From positions 32,426,001-32,490,000 of the forward strand of contig OX638153.1 in NCBI GenBank assembly GCA_951804945.1: 64,000 nt of DNA. Reading direction: 5' to 3'. The stretch is from Podarcis cretensis (Eukaryota). Shown piece by piece: positions 9,516 to 58,544 of this stretch. How positions within the stretch are numbered: the first letter of the stretch is position 1; every line of letters begins with the position of its first letter. The notes beneath the pieces are model-generated. The model made no database searches, was not told the DNA's origin, and worked only from the letters and a program-made list of their open reading frames with translations. The position numbers and the translations under genes are program-made.

Positions 9516-10342
9516 TGTCAGAGCTGCCCGAGGTCCCAGCTCACAAAGGACCAAAGCCAGTTCGTTGTTATATACAAAAGTCTTTATTGAAGTTCAGTTT
9601 CGATTTCAAAGCCGCGGCACGCAGCTCTACATCTCAAACTCTAGACCGCTGAAGCTCCGTCTGAATCTCCTCCCCCCAGACACCAGTTTAAGACTCTAGC
9701 CTTGCTCCACCTCTTCCTTTGCTCTTTCCTCCTCTGGGTCCGCCTGTCCGCTGGGGTCTTGCCCTTTCTAGACTCTTCTGACGCTGAGTCCCCTGAGTCT
9801 TCCCCCTCCCCCTGGCGGGCTTTAGGACCTGGCTCCCAATCCGTGCTTCCTGCTGTCCCGCGCGCCTGTACATTCGAACTTGGCGCTCGCGCCCAGCCGG
9901 CAACCTTTCTCCTGACCGTTACACTGCTCCTGTCACTGCTTCCCCCTTCGGGGAGGCTAGCTGGACCTGACTTCCCCTCCGTTCCCTCACTCTCCGATAG
10001 AGGCATGGTCAGTCCTGACTCATCTTCTCTCCCTGCTGGAGGAGACGCTGGCCCTGATACATGGGACTCTTCCCCCCCCCGCTACGCTCTGGTGGGGGAG
10101 CTGGTCCTGATCTCCCGCTGCTGCTTTGGGAGTCCCCGCTGGCCCCTTGCTTCTGGTGCATCCCCCCTGGGACCCCCCTTGCCCTGGCCCTCGGCGCCCC
10201 CCTCTGGGAATCTTCTGATTCGCTGGAGAAGCTCATGGAATCTCTCGTGCCACTGTCATACTCCCCTACGCTGCCCTCAGATTCTTCCCCTTCGCTCTCC
10301 ATTTCCTCTCTCCCCTGTGCCTCTGCTCCTGAGCCCCTGACA
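9516..10342 (-). mobile_element. Solo-LTR-like element, copy A (827 bp)
   Basis: TGTCAG...CTGACA termini. 5-bp flanks CATAC/CATAT (TSD with one mismatch). AATAAA at 9583-9588 (-). Colinear with copy B. Confidence 0.85.
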
Positions 10343-35792: not shown

Positions 35793-36467
35793 CCGTATTT
35801 TTCGCCCTATAGGACGCACTTTTTCTCCTCCAAAAATGAAGGGGAAATGTGTGTGCGTCCTATGGGGTGAATGCAGGCTTTCGCTGAAGCCTGGAGAGCG
35901 AGAGGGGTCGGTACGCACCAACCCCTCTCGCTCTCCAGGCTTCAGGAAGCTATCCGCAAGCCTTGCAAGCCCGGCGGGAGGTCCCGCGGGCTCGCAAGGC
36001 TTGTGGACAGCAACCTGCAGCCCACAAGCTCGGGGGACAGCGGGGAGGTGGCACGCCGCCACCCTGCTATTCCCGGACCTGATCTGGAGGCTGGCGGGGG
36101 GGGGGGAGAAGCAAACTTGCTTCTCCCCCCCCCCGCCAGCCCCACAAGTTCGGGGGATAGCGGGGAGGCGGAGCACCGCCACCCCGCTATTCCCGGACCT
36201 GATCTGGAGGCTGGCGGGGGGGGAGAAGCAAGCTTGCTTCTCCCCATCGCCAGCCCCACAAGCTCAGGGGACAGTAGGAGAAGCTGCTGCCCCATGGAGG
36301 CTGTCCCTGAAGACAGAAGAGGGAGACGGAGCGCTCCGTCTCCCTCTTCTAGCTTGGGGATGGCTGCGCAAACCTGGGGGGGAAATAAAAAAATTTTCCT
36401 TGATTCCCCCCCCAAAAAACTAGGTGCGTCCTATGGGCCGGTGCGTCCTATAGGGTGAAAAATACGG
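35793..36467. mobile_element. TcMar-Tc2-like non-autonomous DNA transposon with internal hairpin tandem repeats
   Basis: TA|CCGTATTTTTCGCCCTATAGGACGCAC...GTGCGTCCTATAGGGTGAAAAATACGG|TA, with ~120-bp GC-rich units inside. Confidence 0.88.
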
Positions 36468-36926: not shown

Positions 36927-36960
36927 CTGTTTGAAAGAGGGGGAAAACACCAAACACAGT

Positions 36961-37785
36961 TGTCAGGGGCTCAGGAGCAGAAGCACAGGGAAGAGGGGAG
37001 ATGGAGAGCGAAGGGGAAGAATCTGAGGGCAGCGTAGGAGAAGATGACAGTGGCCTGAGAGATTCCATGAGCCTCTCCAGCGAATCGGAAGATTCACAGA
37101 AGGGGGCGCCGGTGGCCAGGGCAAGGGGGGTCCCAAGGGGGACACTCCAGAAGCAAGGGGCCAGCGGGGACTCCCAGAGCAGCAGTTGGAGATCAGGACC
37201 AGCTTCCCCACCTGAGCATAGTGGGGGGGAAGAGTCCCAGGTATCGGGGGTAGCGTCTCCCCCAGCAGGGAGAGAAGAGGAGTCAGGGCTGACCACGCCT
37301 CCATCGGAGAGTCAGGCAACGGAGGGGAGGTCAGGTCCAGCTAGCATCCCGGAAGAGGGAAGCAGTGACAGAAGCAGTGTAATGGTCAGGAGGAAGGTCA
37401 CTGGGTTGGCGCGAGAGCCAAGTTCAAAAGTACAGGCGCGCAGGGCAGCAGAGAACGAGGATTGGGAACCGGGTCCTAAAGCCTGCCGGAGGCAGGGGGA
37501 GGAGTCAGGGGACTCAGCGTCAGAAGAGTCCAGAAAGGGGAATGCCTCAGCGGACAGGAGGACCCAGAGGAGAAGAGAGCAGAGGAAGAGGTGGAGCAGG
37601 GCTAGAATCTTAAACTGGTGTCAGGGGGGAGGAGATTCAGACGGAACTTCGGCGGTCTAGGGTTTAAGACGTAGAGCTGCGCGCTACGGCTTTAGAATGG
37701 AAACTGAACTTCAATAAAGACTTTTGTATATAACGACGACCTGGCGTTGGTCCTCTGTGAGCTGGGACCTTGGGCAGCTCTGACA
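36961..37785 (+). mobile_element. Solo-LTR-like element, copy B (825 bp)
   Basis: TGTCAG...CTGACA termini. Perfect 5-bp TSD ACAGT (36956-36960 and 37786-37790). AATAAA near 37713. Confidence 0.88.
37001..37660 (+). CDS. Putative 219-aa protein encoded inside the LTR-like element (Ser/Glu-rich, Arg-rich C-terminal motif)
   Basis: ATG-to-TAG ORF. The same start and stop occur in copy A (10302 to 9641, -), where a +2 G-homopolymer slip splits it. Function unknown. Confidence 0.4.
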   Translation: MESEGEESEGSVGEDDSGLRDSMSLSSESEDSQKGAPVARARGVPRGTLQKQGASGDSQSSSWRSGPASPPEHSGGEESQVSGVASPPAGREEESGLTTPPSESQATEGRSGPASIPEEGSSDRSSVMVRRKVTGLAREPSSKVQARRAAENEDWEPGPKACRRQGEESGDSASEESRKGNASADRRTQRRREQRKRWSRARILNWCQGGGDSDGTSAV

Positions 37786-39980
37786 ACAGTTCATATTTAA
37801 GATTTGGCAACTGCATAATTCACTTGGTCAGCTGCACTAGGCTACACCAATTCACCAACACAGTTTCTCCCCCACTTTTTAATGGAGGTTTATGGATTAC
37901 TTCAATTAAATTTATATATTTTAGTGCGGCTGTTATTTCAGTAGTTTGATGCATATTTAATTTTTTATTTTCATTATTTTCTTTTAAGCCTTTGTATGCT
38001 GCTTGAAAATACTTTTTTGAACAGAATATCATACAAAATAAAATGATCATCAGCAGAATTCACAACTATATCCTGTCCCCAGCAAATTCCCCAGAATACC
38101 TACCCTTTCTTCCCTAGAAGACAGAATGGATTGTTCATCACTATTGACTTTTGCCCTTGTTTCTGCTGTTTCTAGAATCATATAAACCTAACTTAGTTCA
38201 ATTAATTTCAGTGCGTCTGCTCTGAGCACGTTAGCCGACTACAACCCAATGGATTCAGCTCACAACAATTTTACACTATAGAACATTGAATCATACAGAG
38301 CAATGCCTCCAGGCCTCCTAAGCCCCAACAGATTATTGTCCCATTGTGAAACTTATAATGAAGACATTCAGATTATTTTGCCACATAGAGTGTCACAGGC
38401 TGTATTAATGGTCCCATCAAATGGAATGTTGTATGATCATATGAGGGTCAGTTCATATGAGGTCATCACAGGGATTCACTGAGATAGAGGAAAATTAAAT
38501 CCTGTCATTATTAATGTAGATTGCAAGCTTTACATGCAGCAACTTCTAGATACTATACAGCACAGTGCTAGTAATATTTAACTGTTAAAGAGTACAAACA
38601 ACTGTAGCATATTTCCCATACATAATAAACTGCCAAATACTGTCAAATATTAAAGCAAAGGATGAGAATTTTATCTATTTCTGTGGATAGTATCAGAATC
38701 TATGCAGCTAGCTGCTCCCTGAATAACACAGACAAAGGCCTTTTCTCTGACAATTTAAACAAACAATCTAGAAAAGCATGTTGCTCATTGTGCTGCCAAG
38801 TCCTCATCACACACTAATGTCAACTTGGTGACACACACACAAGCATCCTGCGATGCAAAACTGGGTCCAGAAGTCCTCAACTTTGAGCTGGCCTCAATAA
38901 ACCAAGTCAATTTTGTGACTGCCACCAATCCTCCTGCTATGGATAAAATCTTTGTCGTTGCACTTGGAGGCACTGAGCAGTGAGAAATTTTGCTGCATTA
39001 GAGTGACTCTGAAGCTCAGCAAAGCAGGGCCAAGCCCTCTCCATCAACCCCCTTTTCCTTAGGAGAGAGTGGTGGGAGGCTCAAGCCTGCAGTCACAAAA
39101 GGAATGTAAAGTAAGAGATGGGCAGGGGCTCATCTCTGACCTCTCTTTGGTCTTCAGGGGCACAGTAAGGCTTCTTGCCACTTCTGAGCACCTCACTGAT
39201 TTCAAGTGCCTCTGAAGCCCAAAGCAAGGTCAGAGACAAGCCCCTGGCCATAACTCACTTTGCATTTGCCACCAATGTGCTTACCTGCTAAAAAAATATG
39301 CTCATCATTTGCAAGCTCATCTGCGGGTCTCACCCTGCAAGCTAGGGATCATTCTGCTAAAAGGTCCTTGCAAAAAGATTGGAAGTGAAAAAAATATCGG
39401 GGGGGGGGGGGGAGATTCATAGTTTCACAGCTTGCTAATTCTACAGCTCAAAGACAATGGGTTTGTGTAGTAGATTATGACAACTCCTGCACTGTAGAAT
39501 CACTGATCTACTGTATTAGAGCTTATTTTTTTAATACAGTTCAATACTCTCTACCTTCGACTTGTTTCGGAAATTAATCTCAGGGATATACGACCATTGA
39601 GTGGGGGGAGCTATTTGCCAAAGGCTCTGCTAGTGAAAAAGTGCCAAGGCAATCCCATTTTTCATGCACTTCCAGGAGGGGAGAATCAATCTTTGTTCAT
39701 GTACAAATAAAACCAGCTACTGTAAGAGAGAGAAATGCTAGGTTATAATAAGATTGCAAGCAAAGAGATGCTTCTAAATGGTTTATATCAAGAACAAAGT
39801 GCAATTAGGTCCTTGTATTGTTTTGTGTAGGCTTTTCATTTACTCCTAATAATGGTTTGCTGAACTGCTGCAAGCTGGGATACCCCACACCCCTCTAAGT
39901 TACCCTGGCCCTAGAACCAGTACTTCTTTTTGAGTGCTGCAGCTGGATTATGGCATCCCAAGTGCTTTCAATTTACTCAC

Positions 39981-40117: not shown

Positions 40118-40321
40118 CTGTAGAAACATTGAGAAATTCATTGAGTGACATCAGAAATTCATGTTTTCATTACTTTTGCATATCTAGGAATCTGTGTCGC
40201 TTTTAAGGTATAGAGCAGATCTCTATTACAAGCGAGGCTTTATGTTCTAAAAAATGTGGAGCAGCTATTGGTTCTTTATTCCAATCTCACATATTTGTAA
40301 CCAGGTACCTGTAGCATCTGT

Positions 40322-41090
40322 GGGACGCAGGTGGCGCTGTGGGTTAAAGCCTCAGCGCCTAGGACTTGCCGATCGAAAGGTCGGCGGTTCGAATCCCTGC
40401 GGCGGCTTGTTTGTGCAGAGTGGGTGGGGGCGTCTACTATGTTCCATGGTATAAGCGTGCTAACACTGCCAGGGTAGATGACTGCAATGCGTTATACATG
40501 GGGCTGCCTCTGGTTCGGAAACTTCAGCTGGTGCAGAATTCAGTGCCCAGGTTGCTCACCAGGGCAAGATGCTTTGAGCATATTACACCAATCCTGGCCC
40601 AACTGCACTGGCTGCCAAATAAGTTTCCGGGCCCAATTCAAAGTGCTGGTTTTGACCTATAAAGCCTTAAATGGCTCAGGACTGCAATACCTCAAGGACT
40701 GCCTCTCCCCATATGAACTGACCCAAATAAAACTGATTGTTTTATTTTATTTAATACCATCCATCTGATCATCATCTAAGGTCCTTCTTTGTTTGCCTCT
40801 TCCACGAGAGGTCCGGAAGGTGGCAACACAAGAATGGTCCTTTTCCGTGGTGGCTCCGTTTGTGAATGTTCTCTCCCTGGGAGGCTCACCTGGCACCTTT
40901 GTTACATATCCTTAGGCACCAGGCAAAAGCATGCCTTTCGCTGGCCAGAGCAGCGATGTCACGCTGGCCACGTGACCCGGAAGTGTCTCCGGACAGCGCT
41001 GGCCCCTGGCCTCTTAAGTGAGATGGGCGCACAACCCCAGAGTCTGTCAAGACTGGCCCGTACGGGCAGGGGTACCTTTACCTTTACCTT
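40322..41090 (+). mobile_element. Chimeric Sauria SINE (head + L2 fragment + tail)
   Basis: SINE head 40322-~40405, L2-like 3' ORF2 fragment ~40470-40930, SINE 3' part ~40938-41090. One TSD TACCTGTAGCATCT (40306 and 41091) flanks the whole unit. Confidence 0.85.
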
Positions 41091-42694
41091 TACCTGTAGC
41101 ATCTTAGGGAGACTTATTCAACTGCTATCTCCATCTTGTAACTGAGTCTTCAAGGTAACCTCATAGCTAAACATCCAGCCCAATTTACTTTATTTCTTTT
41201 TCCTTCTCTCCCAATCCCCTATTTTGTGTAACATCTTGCCTAATTGAAGAATTCTCGAGAACTCAATAACTTTTTGTAATGTTTTGCTTTCTTCTGAGAA
41301 AGGTATTAACCAACTCCATATTTTTGAAGTAGAACGTCTGATGATCAGAATTCAAAATGGGTGACATGCAAAATTAAAGTCATATAATAACATGGCAATA
41401 GCAACAAATAGGAAATATTATTTTTTAAAAAAACAGCAAACTAAAAAATGCCCAGATAAATGTATTCAAATTACATTACATAATTTCCTACATTTTGCTG
41501 GCTCCTGCATTTTAAAATCAGTTAGCTCTTATCTTCATAGCTGCTTTAGAAAAGGTAATTTCCCTACAGGTAATTGTCTTGTCTCCATTCAACCACATTG
41601 TTAATTTTTACATTTCAGAAACCCAAGTGATGCTGCACAGCAGGGGGCCAGCTAATGACTCCCTTTCTTATATGCAAGTCTTATTTGAAGGAGCAAAGTG
41701 GCAGATCATTTGCTACTCCTCGGCCACATATACAGTGATGCAGGCTGTAGAATCAACACACCCTTACTCTCATCTTGTTTGATGCCTGCCTATGCGCTGC
41801 ACACATGGGAGATGCTAGCAATATGTATCACACTGTAATAGCTATATGCCGTGGCTAGGCGTGGCACCAGCAAGGCTGGGGCGCATGTGTGTCAGATGAC
41901 AGTGCATGGCAGGAGACACCGGGTGATGCAGGAAGCGTTGGAGTAGCAGGGGGCTCTGCCACACAAGGACCCTGGAATTATGATGACTAAATGTATTACC
42001 AACCCTTCATCAGCAGGTCCCACAACAGTAACAACAATTTAAAATTTGGTATTAAAAATGTTAAAAAGAAATAATAGTCACAGAATTTCAGGTGCCAAAG
42101 GCCGGGGTGAATTGGCGTGTCATCAGCATTCACTGAAAGCTGTATAGTGAAGTCACCAGATGTATCTCTGTGAAGAGGGAATTCCACACCTTAGGGGTTG
42201 CCACGGAGAGAATGCCCTTTCCCCAGGCCACTGCCCCCTGAATTTCTGAGGGTGGCAGAACTACCAGCCCCCCCCCCCGATCTTAACACCTGAGAGGGTC
42301 TGTAGAGAAGGAGGCAGTCTTTCAGCTATTTGGGGCCTAAGTCGTTTAGGGCTTTAAACACTATCTACATAGGGAAATTAATTTTCAACAGTGAATGAAC
42401 TGTACCAACTGGAAGAAATATACCAACTGGAAGAAAGACCAAGAACATTGATTTAGGGCCCTACATCCTCCAAGAGTCAGGAATCACTATAGCATATCTA
42501 TTCAGTGTAAAAATAGATCCAAGTATGAGGAACGCAGAGGTCTTGATCCCTGAATAGTAGAAGTTTGACAAAGGCTTTTTCTTGTTTCTAAGCTTTTAGA
42601 AAGACTGCTCCAATTTGAGTTTTGTCAGCCACCTTTATACACAGAAACTTTTAAATCATTCGCTGAAATCTTCCAGAAACAGAAAGTTCCACAG

Positions 42695-45769: not shown

Positions 45770-46690
45770 GTATAAACAGAACAATCCTAAGTAGGTTTAC
45801 CCAGAAGTAAGACCTACTGAGTTCAATGGATCTTACTCCTTACCTGAAGGCGCAATCTTAATTCCTGGCAAGGGAACAGCAGGCTGAACAGAGAAGGAGA
45901 GCTGCCACCACATCTGAAGCTCTTCTGCTCACACTGGCCATGGAGGAAAGGGAAGGAGTATTTCACCTAATTTATGCTGTGCCAGCTTCATGTGACAACA
46001 GCAGAGAGACCTGGATCAAGTCCCTCCCTAGCTGCAGGACCAGTTCAGGGTCCAGCAAATTCATGGCTGGTCCAACTTCTCTCCACTGCCATTCCACCCC
46101 ATACTGAGCCCTTAAACTGACTATTACCAATGGGAACACCACTAGCCATAGCATGTCAACAACTCACATTGTTGATGGTCAGAGACAAACAGAAGGGAAA
46201 TCCTCCCCATACCCTAAATGCATCCCAGCAGTGGAGGTTGGGGGTTAGGATTGTTCTGCAAATGTGTTTTAATCTTAACAGTTTAGCCCCATGACGCTTC
46301 TGAGTGGACTTTTCCCAAGAAAAGCCTGCAGCAAAGTTGCAACAGGCTGCTCTAGCTTGCTGAGCCCTTGCTGTTTTGCTTAGATGCTTGCCTGCTTTAA
46401 GACAAAGAGCCTTTAAATTACTTGTTCAAACTCCCAGTTCATAATTTACTATTTAGTAATCAATGCAGTGCCATTGAATTGCATTGATTTTTCCTTTACA
46501 TCTGCACCCAGCAATATCTTCAAACAACCCCTGTTGTACTTGAGCATCCTAACAGCAGCAGAAACATCAATAATAATAAAAAAGCAAGTCAGAAGCATAT
46601 CTAGAACAACTCTTAAGTAAAGCAAAGTTAGAGAAGAAAGTTTGCTCACAAAAATCTGGACTAAACCAGACTTACAAGCTGTATACAGTG

Positions 46691-47070
46691 GTAAAGGTAA
46701 AGGTAAAGGTACCCCTGCCCGTACGGGCCAGTCTTGACAGACTCTGGGGTTGTGCGCCCATCTCACTTAAGAGGCCAGGGGCCAGCGCTGTCCGGAGACA
46801 CTTCCGGGTCACGTGGCCAGCGTGACATCGCTGCTCTGGCCAGAGCCAGAGCCAGAGCCAGAGCCGCACACGGAAACGCCGTTTACCTTCCCGCTGGTAA
46901 GCGGTCCCTATTTATCTACTTGCACCCGGAGGTGCTTTCGAACTGCTAGGTTGGCAGGCGCTGGAACCGAGCAGCGGGAGCGCACCCCGCCGCAGGGATT
47001 CGAACCGCCGACCTTTCGATCGGCAAGCCCTAGGCGCTGAGGCTTTAACCCACAGCGCCACCTGCGTCCC
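46691..47070 (-). mobile_element. Sauria SINE, full length
   Basis: Near-identical to 58187-58544. TSD GTATACAGTGGTA (46681 and 47071). Confidence 0.95.
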
Positions 47071-47075
47071 GTATA

Positions 47076-53933: not shown

Positions 53934-54962
53934 ATGGAGGGTGAGGGAACAGCTGCAGTCGCCTGCGGTTCCTGCGCAATGTTTGCCATCTTGCCAAAGG
54001 TTGCAGGCAGCTTTACCTGCAGCAATTGCATGTTGACTGCCCTCTTAAAAGACAAAGTCCAGCAACTGGAGGAACGTGTAGCTACGCTCCAAAGAATTAG
54101 AGAGCTGGAGCTCTTCTTGGAAGCAACAGAGCACACCGTCTCCACCAAGGAGGAGACAGGGGACTCCCCTGAGAAGGAGGCTAGTTCACCAACACAGGAG
54201 CCAGATATATGGAGAAACGTGACTCAAAGAAGTAGGAGGCCCAGGGTTCGCTCTGATTGTTTAGAAATACACAATTGCTTTGAGGTCCTCTCCCCTAGCA
54301 TGGAAGACGAAGAGCAGACTCCATTTGAGTATCTCTCCCTCATTACAGTCGATCAGGTATATGAAGACGAGCAGCAAAGTCAGTCCTCAGGGAATGTGCA
54401 GGCAACCTTGGAACGGACAGCTCACGGAAGAACCCCGACCAAACCTAAAAGGAGGCGTGTAGTGGTGATAGAGGATTCCCTACTGAGGGGAACAGAAGCA
54501 GTGATCTGTGGGCCTGACAAGATGTCTCGGGAAGTGTGCTGTCTCCCCGGGGCTAAGATCCAAGATGTAACTGAACGACTGCAAGGAATCATAAAACCCA
54601 CTGACAAATACCCCTTCCTCTTGGTTCATGTGGGAACCAATGACACTGCAAGCAATAGCCTCCAGAAGATCAAAAGAGACTACGAGGCTCTGGGCAGGAA
54701 ATTGAAGCAATTAAATGCACAAACTGTCATCTCATCTGTCCTCCCAGTTGAACTACGTGGCCCAGGGAGAGAGGGAAAAATAGTGGAAGTGAACAGCTGG
54801 CTTCGCAAATGGTGTAAACAGGAACAGTTTGGATTCTTAGATCACGGACTGCAGTTTCTTGAAGATGGACTTCTGGCAAGCGATGGGCTGCACCTCACAA
54901 CGGTTGGGAGGAATGTTTTTGCCAAAAATCTCAGAAACCTCATCAGGAGGGCTTTAAACTGA
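53934..54962 (+). CDS. CR1 ORF1p (Zn finger/leucine zipper + SGNH esterase-like domain), 342 aa
   Basis: CxxC..CxxC, coiled coil, VVIEDSLLRG (GDS-like), HVGTND, DGLHL. Confidence 0.9.
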   Translation: MEGEGTAAVACGSCAMFAILPKVAGSFTCSNCMLTALLKDKVQQLEERVATLQRIRELELFLEATEHTVSTKEETGDSPEKEASSPTQEPDIWRNVTQRSRRPRVRSDCLEIHNCFEVLSPSMEDEEQTPFEYLSLITVDQVYEDEQQSQSSGNVQATLERTAHGRTPTKPKRRRVVVIEDSLLRGTEAVICGPDKMSREVCCLPGAKIQDVTERLQGIIKPTDKYPFLLVHVGTNDTASNSLQKIKRDYEALGRKLKQLNAQTVISSVLPVELRGPGREGKIVEVNSWLRKWCKQEQFGFLDHGLQFLEDGLLASDGLHLTTVGRNVFAKNLRNLIRRALN

Positions 54963-54967
54963 CTAAT

Positions 54968-57877
54968 GTGGGGGAGGGAGACAGTGCTCCTGAAGGTAGG
55001 AGTCTATCAATTGATGAAGATGATCATCCAAATGTCATAGACCAAATGGAGCAAACAGCACGCAGACCTAGTGGTGGGAGGAAAAAATCCTTAAATAAGA
55101 GACACGGGGGAATGATTAATGGACTTCAATGTCTGTACACTAATGCGCAAAGCATGGGAAATAAACAAGATGAGCTTGAGCTCTTGGTACAGCAAACTAA
55201 ATATGACATAATAGGCATCACTGAAACCTGGTGGGATAAGTCCCACGATTGGAATGTAATAATGGAGGGATACAATCTATTTCAGAGAAACAGACCAGAC
55301 AAAAAAGGAGGAGGAGTGGCGTTATATGTCAGGGATGTGTATACCTGTGAAGAGATCCAAGATTTAGAACCTCAAAGCCAAAGTGAGAGCATATGGGTCA
55401 AAATTAAGGGAGAGAAGAATAACAGTGACCTCATTGTGGGAGTTTACTATAGATCCCCAAGCCAAACGGAGGACATAGATGATGCCTTCCTGCAACAGAT
55501 GGCCAAGCATGCAAAAGGAAGGGAGATAGCAGTAATGGGGGACTTAAATTACTCGGATATTTGTTGGATGTCACACTCAGCCAAGAGCATAAGGTTAAAC
55601 AGATTCCTCACTGACCTTGAAGACAACTTCATTGTCCAGAAAGTGGGAGAAGCAACAAGAGGAGCACCATTTTAGATCTGGTCCTAACCAATGTTGATGA
55701 CCTGGGAAGTGGAAGGATCATTAGGTGTGAGTGATCATGCTCTTCTGAAGTTTACTATACAGCGGAAAGGAGCAGCCAAGCATACTAGGACTCAATTTCT
55801 TGACTTTAAGAAAGCCGACTTCATAAAACTTAGGGAAGTGCTGGGTGAGATCCCATGGACAGTAATACTAAAAGGAAAGGGAGTTCATGATGGCTGGGAG
55901 TTTGTTAAGAGGGAGATAGTAAAAGCACAACTTCAGGCAATACCAATGAGACGGAAACATGGAAGGTGCCTAAAGAAGCCAGGGTGGCTATCTAAAGAAC
56001 TTTTAACTGAGTTAAGATTAAAAAAGGATGTGTACAAAAAATGGAAAAGGGGGGAAACCACCAAAGAGGAATTCAAACAAATAGCCAGCACGTGTAGACA
56101 CAAAGTCAGAAAAGCTAAAGCACGGAATGAACTCAGGCTTGCTAGAGAGGTTAAAAGCAACAAAAAAGGCTTTTATGGGTATGTTTGTAGCAAAAGGAAG
56201 AACAAAGAAACAGTGGGGTCACTCAGAGGAGAAGATGGTGAAATGCAAACAGGGGACACAGAAAGGGCTGAACTCCTCAATGCTTTCTTTGCCTCAGTCT
56301 TCTCCGATAAAGAAAACAATGCCCAACCTGAAGAATTTGGAGCAAATGATTCAGCAGAGGAAACACAGCCCAGAATAACTAAGGAGATAGTACAAGAATA
56401 CTTGGCTAGTTTAGATGTATTCAAGTCTCCAGGGCCAGATGAACTGCATCCAAGAGTATTAAAAGAACTGGCAGATGTGATCTCAGAACCACTGGCAGTC
56501 ATCTTTGAGAATTCCTGGAGAACAGGCGAAGTCCCGGCAGACTGGAGGAGGGCAAATGTTGTCCCTATTTTCAAAAAGGGGAAAAGAGAGGACCCAAATA
56601 ATTACCGCCCAGTCAGTCTGACATCAATACCAGGGAAGATTCTGGAGCAGATCATTAAGCAAACAGTCTGTGAGCACCTAGAAAGGAATGCTGTGATCAC
56701 CAATAGTCAGCATGGATTTCTGAAAAATAAGTCATGTCAGACTAACCTGATCTCGTTTTTTGACAGAATTACAAGCCTGGTAGATGAAGGGAACGCAGTG
56801 GATGTAGCCTACCTTGATTTCAGCAAGGCATTTGACAAGGTGCCCCATGATATTCTTGTAAAGAAGCTGGTAAAATGCGGTCTTGACTATGCTACCACTC
56901 AGTGGATTTGTAACTGGCTAACTGACCGAACCCAAAGGGTGCTCATCAATGGTTCCTCTTCATCCTGGAGAAGAGTGACTAGTGGGGTGCCACAGGGTTC
57001 TGCCTTGGGCCCGGTCTTATTCAACATCTTTATCAACGACTTGGATGATGGACTCAAGGGCATCCTGATCAAATTGCAGATGACACCAAACTGGGAGGGG
57101 TGGCTAACACCCCAGAGGACAGGATCACACTTCAAAACGACCTTGACAGATTAGAGAACTGGGCCAAAACAAACAAGATGAATTTGAACAGGGAGAAATG
57201 TAAAGTATTGCACTTGGGCAAAAAAAAATGAGAGGCACAAATACAAGATGGATGACACCTGGCTTGAGAGCAGTACATGTGAAAAGGATCTAGGAGTCTT
57301 GGTTGACCACAAACTTGACATGAGCCAACAGTGTGACGCGGCAGCTAAAAAAGCCAATGCAATTCTGGGCTGCATCAATAGGAGTATAGCATCTAGATCA
57401 AGGGAAGTAATAGTGCCACTGTATTCTGCTCTGGTCAGACCTCACCTGGAGTACTGTGTCCAGTTCTGGGCACCACAGTTCAAGAAGGACACTCACAAAC
57501 TGGAACGTGTCCAGAGGAGGGCAACCAAAATGGTCAAAGGCCTGGAAACGATGCCTTATGAGGAATGGCTAAGGGAGCTGGGCATGTTTAGCCTGGAGAA
57601 GAGGAGGTTAAGGGGTGATATGATAGCCATGTTCAAATATATAAAAGGATGTCACATAGAGGAGGGAGAAAGGTTGTTTTCTGCTGCTCCAGAGAAGCGG
57701 ACACGGAGCAATGGTTCCAAACTACAAGAAAGAAGATTCCACCTAAACATTAGGAAGAACTTCCTGACAGTAAGAGCTGTTCGACAGTGGAATTTGCTGC
57801 CAAGGAGTGTGGTGGAGTCTCCTTCTTTGGAGGTCTTTAAGCAGAGGCTTGACAACCATATGTCAGGAGTGCTCTGA
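54968..57877 (+). pseudogene. CR1 ORF2 (APE endonuclease + RT), disrupted
   Basis: [39 protein letters not shown]. Frame breaks near 55670-55700, at the FADD codons (~57073) and in the A-run near 57225. Confidence 0.92.
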
Positions 57878-58186
57878 TGGTGTTTCCTGCTTGGCAGGGG
57901 GTTGGACTCGATGGCCCTTGTGGTCTCTTCCAACTCTATGATTCTATGATCTTTCACTTCTTCATCACTAAAGGATGTGGGCAGCTTCAATGGGGAAATC
58001 CTGGATTTTATCTTTATAATGTGCGAATTCCAGGGACAAAATACAAATTATATTTCTATGATCTCTCATGGCTTATCATCATACTTATTATCCCACCATA
58101 TTGCTAACGTTGAGTATATCATCTCAGGTAATAGTGTTTTTACATATTTTTATGTAAAAAAATTAAAAAAAAATTATGTATTTTAT

Positions 58187-58544
58187 GGGACGCAGGTGGC
58201 GCTGTGGGTTAAAGCCTCAGCGCCTAGGGCTTGCCGATCGAAAGGTCGGCGGTTCGAATCCCTGCGGCGGGGTGCGCTCCCGCTGCTCGGTCCCAGCGCC
58301 TGCCAACCTAGCAGTTCGAAAGCACCTCCGGGTGCAAGTAGATAAATAGGGACCGCTTACCAGCGGGAAGGTAAACGGCGTTTCCGTGTGCGGCTCTGGC
58401 TCGCCAGAGCAGCGATGTCACGCTGGCCACGTGACCCGGAAGTGTCTCCGGACAGCGCTGGCCCCTGGCCTCTTAAGTGAGATGGGCGCACAACCCCAGA
58501 GTCTGTCAAGACTGGCCCGTACGGGCAGGGGTACCTTTACCTTT
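58187..58544 (+). mobile_element. Sauria SINE, full length
   Basis: gggacgcaggtggcgctgtgg head, ggttcgaatcc B box, acctttaccttt tail. Confidence 0.95.

Follow-up and report, generated by a model that had tools for sequence, protein, structure and literature searches.

The open reading frame of a solo LTR in the window (the whole 64,000-nucleotide stretch of Podarcis cretensis DNA that was analysed) most probably represents the last 232 codons of a retrotransposon pol frame. As this frame runs from the integrase through the polypurine tract (PPT) into the 3' LTR, it is likely translated only as a tail of the integrase, predicted to be disordered, and not as a separate Rev-like protein. This reading corrects what is likely a common annotation error, the 'ORFs' of such solo LTRs being pol tails, and UniRef already contains these tails as mis-named host 'integrase-like' proteins. 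It also provides a vertebrate parallel to the layout of plant CRM elements, in which some 230 codons lie in U3 and overlap the promoter; our literature search, which extended neither to Repbase nor to most subscription journals, returned pol-into-LTR layouts for plants only. The relevant features of the window are as follows.

36961..37785, + strand: solo LTR of 825 bp (TGTC..GACA), assigned to a Ty3/Gypsy, Tf1/sushi-type element; 98-99% matches flank gag/pol (L032, L098 and others)
36956..36960, + strand: left 5-bp target site duplication (TSD), ACAGT
37786..37790, + strand: right 5-bp TSD, ACAGT
36962..37660, + strand: open frame of 232 codons plus TAG, probable C-terminal Pol/integrase tail within U3, in frame with the integrase (IN) through the PPT in full-length copies
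37001..37660, + strand: ATG-started ORF of 219 aa, the ATG being an internal Met of the tail
37553..37606, + strand: basic Arg/Lys patch with RxxW, candidate NLS or tether; within the most conserved block of the tail, overlapping its only predicted helix
37608..37614, + strand: putative TATA-like element TCTTAAA, ~25-31 nt upstream of the predicted start; the sister family has it as well
37639..37649, + strand: 11-nt self-priming motif complementary to the primer-binding site (PBS), predicted RNA 5' end and U3/R border; four covarying motif/PBS variants
37713..37718, + strand: AATAAA, likely polyadenylation signal, 52 nt after the stop
9516..10342, - strand: second solo LTR (copy A, subfamily A) with 88% identity; TSD 4/5, frame interrupted at a G run

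Both ends of the window element were confirmed, i.e. an 825-bp TG..CA unit flanked by ACAGT on either side, as were the coordinates of the 219-aa ORF described in the original prediction, which runs from +41 to ~52 nt before AATAAA (37001-37660; AATAAA at 37713). The frame is open already from base 2 of the LTR, which yields 232 codons, beyond the 219 aa counted from the ATG. Copy A indeed has the same ATG and TAG, with a G9 run against G7 in the window element, and its frame from the ATG encodes 97 aa only, being interrupted at the G run. A recount of the last 53 codons of the two copies gave exactly the 7 synonymous and 9 non-synonymous differing codons previously noted, and the non-synonymous changes in the basic patch are limited to R/K exchanges, as had been claimed.

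Other repeats are present in the window. A GC-rich 120-bp repeat in two copies with overlapping 195-aa frames is located at 35836-36458, 500 bp upstream of the LTR; no Pfam match was obtained in the one frame scanned. A near-full-length non-LTR element, presumably CR1, occupies positions 53934-57877 (+ strand), with an ORF1 that harbours a GDSL/SGNH esterase domain and an ORF2 in pieces that corresponds to an endonuclease and a reverse transcriptase (RT). Short repeats that are 98-100% identical are found at 40321-41098, 46690-47073 and 58184-58544, and we take them to be a young SINE family, 'Sauria SINE'.

We searched the genome of origin (1.5 Gb, 19 large contigs) with the LTR, which yielded 3189 first-look candidates, 40 of which were scored. 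Among the 30 closest loci fetched, 26 have a perfect TSD, 26 retain a 219-220-aa ATG ORF, and two are 3' LTRs behind a PPT. The original prediction had left the classification of the element to full-length copies. These are ~6.7 kb long and consist of an LTR, gag, an overlapping pol and a second LTR. Their gag frame comprises 377 codons with the Pfam signatures Retrotrans_gag and zf-CCHC, and the Pfam domains of pol are found in the order RVP_2, RVT_1, RNase H, Integrase_H2C2, rve and SH3_Tf2-1. The best match of the RT/RNase H (RH) of a related full copy is the Ty3 RT 4ol8 (E 7e-73), with retroviral RTs at 1e-22 or weaker, according to a ranking by E-value rather than a tree. The gag/pol order PR-RT-RH-IN (PR corresponding to RVP_2) and the Ty3-type RT thus place the element in Ty3/Gypsy; the self-priming PBS described below is that of the Tf1/sushi type. 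An endogenous retrovirus was rejected, as there is no env slot, because pol runs into the 3' LTR, and as the PBS pairs with the LTR itself instead of a tRNA.

The chromo-like domain that follows SH3_Tf2-1 is weak. Its Pfam Chromo E-values are 0.001 and 0.025, below the gathering score, and HP1/CBX proteins represent 9 of its 10 PDB matches, with E-values of 0.13-0.73. The Trp and Tyr residues of the HP1 cage align to Arg and Ala, the ESM Atlas lead is 0.77 (a search with the tail gave chromo leads only, all <0.9), and the AlphaFold2 (AF2) model did not fold it.

Several observations relate to the insertions themselves. The 5' LTR is truncated in 5 of the 22 fetched elements (L031, L094, L095, L103 and L109), breaking off after 30-450 nt, where pol follows immediately. 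All five keep their TSDs (4 perfect, 1 with 4/5), which suggests aberrant plus-strand transfer before integration. Half of the internal-bearing copies (20/40) and 13 of 36 copies of the 759-bp subfamily are located within 2 Mb of a chromosome end, for 5% expected; sets dominated by solo LTRs show no such enrichment, with 3 of 40 copies this close to an end in B and in A alike (5% expected). The flanks of 84 LTRs whose TSD is perfect display a weak palindromic target preference, with T rare at position 1, A/T favoured in the centre and A rare at position 5. GTTAG/CTAAC is compatible with this preference but not singled out by it.

Full-length copies connect the LTR frame with pol. In the first two 3' LTRs examined, the frame extends upstream into the SH3 region of the integrase, for totals of 612 and 563 codons. 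One B-like copy has a single 1591-codon frame in the order PR-RT-RH-IN-SH3-chromo-like-tail, terminating at the LTR stop. A sister family, described below, has a longest frame of 1550-1556 codons in 23 of 23 full copies examined, and the long pol frame terminates at the LTR stop in the 4 full copies inspected. The same integrase-tail fusion is found in a Podarcis muralis UniRef homologue (P0008, 1498 aa), and all five longer database homologues collected by profile search harbour integrase domains.

We also surveyed the junctions of 37 3'-LTR loci (older B-like subfamilies and one sister copy), 32 of which have the chromo motif in range. From this motif to the LTR, 12 loci are in frame and free of stops, 5 contain a stop and 15 are out of frame, many of the latter junctions falling at G runs. 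The common chromo-LTR spacings of 620, 617, 602 and 599 are all in frame; that of 619 (7 copies) is not. Broken junctions are expected of dead copies, yet the junction is slippage-prone.

Within the family, the frame is open in 13 of 14 clusters, and the other two sense frames contain 3-11 stops; one two-LTR cluster was without an intact copy. The original prediction had proposed to test whether indels are multiples of three. Between subfamilies they are, with frames of 210, 213, 218, 220, 232 and 233 codons; a 1-bp difference between subfamilies is located after the stop (125 vs 126 nt). The dN/dS test proposed there gave values well below 1 (pairwise median 0.44, 0.23-0.80, for 65 pairs of 12 representative subfamily copies). 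Relative to the sister family, dN/dS of the tail is 0.34-0.44. Shared changes at codon positions 1, 2 and 3 number 43, 40 and 82, respectively, and a CpG-aware dN/dS amounts to 0.46-0.50 (CI ~0.37-0.63; p ~1e-8 vs 1, the sites being not fully independent). For private changes, dN/dS is 0.78 (0.60-1.03), with 0.99 (CI 0.64-1.55) in the oldest solo-LTR cluster and 0.66 and 0.70 in the youngest clusters. The neutral baseline is uncertain, because private changes yield values <1 also in the youngest clusters.

Along the element (47 cross-group pairs, 12 copies), dN/dS is 0.08 for RT, 0.16 for IN, 0.21 for the chromo region, 0.49 for the pre-PPT tail and 0.41 for the LTR part, and the shifted frames gave 1.58 and 1.20. 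These comparisons indicate that the window frame is real and under purifying selection, which is weak relative to that on RT and IN. The idea that the LTR is coding thus stands, given this selection and the frame-preserving indels. The most constrained parts of the tail are its first 40 codons (dN/dS 0.25) and its last ~37 codons, i.e. the block of the basic patch (0.28), and the middle, at 0.53-0.59, tolerates deletions of 12-22 codons. In the terminal blocks, pS is 0.23-0.26 vs 0.07-0.09 for non-synonymous change; constraint at the DNA level would not produce this pattern of high synonymous and low non-synonymous change.

The encoded protein had been described as acidic and Ser-rich, probably disordered, and Rev-like. 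The former part agrees with the AF2 prediction, in which the tail is coil with one low-confidence helix at 200-210 over the basic patch (pLDDT ~55); the model of the sister tail has a mean pLDDT of 36. The Rev-like identity found no such agreement. No Pfam match to a Rev family was obtained at E<=10 for the 219-aa ORF or the tail, the latter having no Pfam match whatsoever, and no NES-like pattern was found in the 219-aa ORF, which contains 6 Leu residues in total. An ESM Atlas search with the same ORF gave no usable match. The amino-acid blocks SSESEDSQ.GAP, PASPP, EPG.KA and R..W...L.WC are retained in the sister family and the database homologues, at a protein identity of 51-66%. Myb and SAM helices, which the basic patch was presumed to resemble, were dropped as a comparison for lack of database support.

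The tail would be made as part of Gag-Pol. Its acidic/Ser-rich linker, which ends in a conserved basic helix, probably serves to bring the integration complex into the nucleus and to tether it to chromatin, adjoining a chromodomain devoid of aromatic-cage residues; plant CRM group A and the targeting domains of Ty1 and Ty5 integrases, discussed below, are precedents. Alternatively, the tail could be functionless read-through: pol would have lost its stop long ago, stops would rarely arise in a T-poor, purine-rich U3, and the low dN/dS would reflect nothing but selection against stops, frameshifts and promoter changes at the DNA level. The sense strand of the ORF part contains 12% T (82/700), the middle of the tail is relaxed and tolerates deletions, and the tail has neither a fold nor a Pfam or Atlas match, all consistent with this view. 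We consider it unlikely, however, given the amino-acid blocks that persist down to 51% identity and the high synonymous but low non-synonymous change in the terminal blocks.

We next consider how the integrase tail relates to the transcript. The PBS is not a tRNA site: an 11-nt motif situated 146-148 nt from the LTR end recurs there, behind the 5' LTR, as its reverse complement. Among 19 5' LTRs, motif and PBS pair perfectly in 13 and with one mismatch in 6, and three covarying variants were identified; the sister family has a fourth variant, which pairs at 10/11 positions. The predicted leader fold of one natural copy pairs the motif with the PBS (a single fold, without shuffle control). In the self-priming described for Tf1/sushi elements, the RNA 5' end serves as the primer (PMC4600332; PMC6317226). 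Given the complementarity of the PBS with the LTR motif at +679, the transcription start is predicted at position 37639 of the window, after the ATG, and we infer that the element RNA begins at ~LTR +679 and serves as the primer of its own reverse transcription. With the start downstream of it, the ATG would lie in U3 together with nearly all the ORF and reach the RNA only at its 3' end, so that a solo LTR would not express the ORF from its own promoter.

This bears on the proposal of a stand-alone Rev-like accessory protein expressible from every solo LTR, which is not borne out: the frame is continuous with that of the integrase, and the ATG is located ~640 nt upstream of the predicted start. 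On this proposal, the +41 ATG would start, in addition, an independent Rev-like or transactivator protein via read-through or spliced RNA, available from solo LTRs. In its favour, Met at +41 is retained in 12 of 14 clusters (153 LTRs) in a strong-looking context, the ATG ORF is intact in most of the closest copies (26/30, as given above), and the basic patch contains a Trp residue. In addition, a splice-donor-like GTAAG(T/C) sequence begins exactly at the LTR end in all 5' LTR/PBS junctions (e.g. L032:5038-5043), which makes a subgenomic RNA conceivable. Two sequencing runs guessed to be RNA (contigs only, without start or strand information) cover parts of the element, and no joints leaving the 5' LTR end were found among 15 listed of 44 in these runs, which counts neither way. 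Against such a protein, all 31 LTR instances of the young sister family have Thr in place of Met at +41, and among the 6 database homologues inspected that cover the site, the Met is kept in P0001, with Thr, Ile or Leu in P0002, P0004, P0005, P0007 and P0008; the ATG at +41 is thus apparently dispensable. Moreover, the codons before the ATG also belong to the open and conserved frame, as does the PPT, the private changes of the oldest solo-LTR cluster are neutral, and the Rev signature and NES are missing from the searches reported above. We regard this reading as very improbable.

The original prediction had also cautioned that long ORFs arise easily on a T-poor strand. Stop-free frames of >=232 codons were obtained in 5 of 5000 mononucleotide, 13 of 3000 dinucleotide and 2 of 1000 trinucleotide shuffles of the whole LTR. 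When the ORF part alone was shuffled, it was fully open (>=231 codons) in 3/5000, 36/3000 and 7/1000 cases, respectively. Although the low T content was borne out, an artefact or chance ORF in a T-poor repeat is hardly credible, considering the shuffles (p <=0.012), the same frame being open in nearly all clusters and its continuity with pol.

The integrase tail also occurs in a sister family of the same layout, with a 784-bp LTR 63% identical to that of the window and with near-identical copies; this sister family is very young. We are highly confident that this family has a tropism for telomeres. Using a family-neutral pattern, we found 226 LTR ends that directly abut the telomeric repeat in a fixed phase, in both orientations (reversed-pattern control, 0). 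The 100 telomere junctions listed fall at chromosome ends (C1, C3-C15) or at interstitial sites (C2, C3, C9). LTR ends of the window-family type number at least 849, yet only 2 of the 226 junctions are of this type, both from the 759-bp subfamily, and 28 of the 30 telomere junctions fetched belong to the sister family. The exact sister LTR end occurs 729 times, 363 of which are before a PBS, leaving 366 insertion ends. It follows that ~224 of 366 sister insertions (61%) are directly in (TTAGGG)n; as a rough yardstick, the terminal 100 kb make up 0.25% of the sequence in large contigs. The family to which the window LTR belongs is not telomeric.

Five chromosome ends (C3 start, C7 end, C8 start, C19 end and C1 end) read as arrays in which 6.5-kb elements of either orientation alternate with ~0.1-2.7 kb of repeat. 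We compared 20 telomeric copies, all of which differ from each other. Sharing a chromosome end does not make copies more similar (medians of 19 differences within and 18 between ends; permutation p 0.74), and for 9 of the 20 the closest copy is an interior one. The two LTRs of one element differ at 0-1 sites, for a mean of 3.5 between different elements (22 elements; one that has an indel was omitted). On these grounds, we rejected the idea that the arrays arose by tandem or ectopic duplication. The telomeric sister copies thus appear to be independent insertions. Insertions in degenerate interstitial repeats carry their own TSDs (CTTAC, ATAAC, CTCAC, CTCAA and CTACC), and the sister family accounts for 37 of 40 LTRs in two interstitial regions of 60-140 kb (C3:121.83-121.96 Mb and C9:78.82-78.87 Mb). 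LTR ends that run into the telomeric repeat were also found in 6 contigs of one public run, which may come from the assembled individual. Targeted insertion is the likely explanation. Older families may likewise have inserted into terminal arrays and since been lost by erosion, although they are also few in interstitial arrays.

At the junctions where the G-strand runs into the element, the first T of the LTR reads G in 8 of 40 cases, vs 0 of 32 on the C-strand side (one-sided Fisher p ~0.006). This change could stem from telomerase or from slippage on a free G-strand end during gap repair.

Between the window family and its sister, identity is 51-53% for the tail, 76% for the chromodomain and 84% for the IN core. 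The determinant of tropism could be any of the three; a greater divergence is expected of any disordered region and thus does not single out the tail. The motif [FYH]xLxP, which we take to be of TRFH type, was rejected as an explanation, as the telomeric and the non-telomeric pol contain it once each, at about chance level. We tentatively suggest, as a possibility that we rate below even chances, that the U3-coded integrase tail is a swappable targeting domain, which in the youngest sister family would tether integration to the chromatin of telomeres. If true, the chromosome ends would consist of intact Gypsy elements in alternation with short (TTAGGG)n tracts, the work of an integrase-driven telomere invader convergent with the centromere targeting of plant CRM and with yeast Ty5. 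The two families, one ~60% telomeric and the other almost never so with the same architecture, represent a natural pair for mapping the gain of an integrase target. Arrays of elements at chromosome ends also bear on telomere protection, telomerase and the measurement of telomere length. In our search of the literature, which covered neither Repbase nor most subscription journals, no LTR element was described as inserting into the telomere repeats of a vertebrate; the invaders of telomere repeats that it returned were all non-LTR elements.

Known systems resemble the window element in part. HIV-1 Rev also has a basic patch with Trp; unlike Rev, the window tail has no Rev Pfam match and no NES, and it is fused to pol. 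MMTV sag and lentiviral nef share the presence of coding sequence in U3. However, nef and sag are separate proteins made from spliced RNA, whereas the window frame is fused to pol and is not a separate gene. The vertebrate Tf1/sushi elements were reportedly first described by Butler et al. in 2001. The chromoviruses of this type (Tf1, Tj1, Sushi-ichi) are similar to the window family in their gag, PR-RT-RH-IN order, SH3_Tf2-1, chromo-like domain and lack of env. As described, they also share a PBS complementary to the element's own 5' end (PMC4600332, PMC6317226). In contrast, pol of the window family passes the PPT and continues for ~230 codons through almost all of U3, and its chromodomain is without cage residues.

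In plant CRM group A, the polyprotein is described as running on into the 3' LTR, and the portion encoded there contains the CR motif, a putative targeting domain unrelated to chromodomains (PMC3059260, PMC3605345, PMC6317226). The extension of pol into the 3' LTR is common to both; CRM elements differ by tRNA-Met priming, centromere targeting, clade and host, whereas the window family has a self-complementary PBS and keeps a degenerate chromodomain upstream. The window family is thus CRM-like in layout and not a CRM member, the tail having been compared with the CR motif by description and Pfam only.

Short integrase motifs that tether integration to host chromatin have been described in yeast: that of Ty5 binds Sir4 at telomeric silent chromatin (PMC4700185), and the targeting domain of Ty1 integrase, located in the NLS linker, binds AC40 (PMC7459421). 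Both are Ty1/copia elements whose targeting domain is not LTR-encoded, and Ty5 is described as inserting near telomeres in heterochromatin, with no report there of insertion inside the repeat array (PMC4700185). Finally, TRAS/SART, MoTeR1, Zepp1, GilM/GilT and Tx1-1_ACar of the anole are inserters into telomere repeats that form element/repeat arrays at chromosome ends; those listed in a 2023 survey, including the anole Tx1, are non-LTR elements only (PMC10088271). The sister family differs from all of these as an integrase-using LTR element, with 5-bp TSDs and insertions in both orientations.
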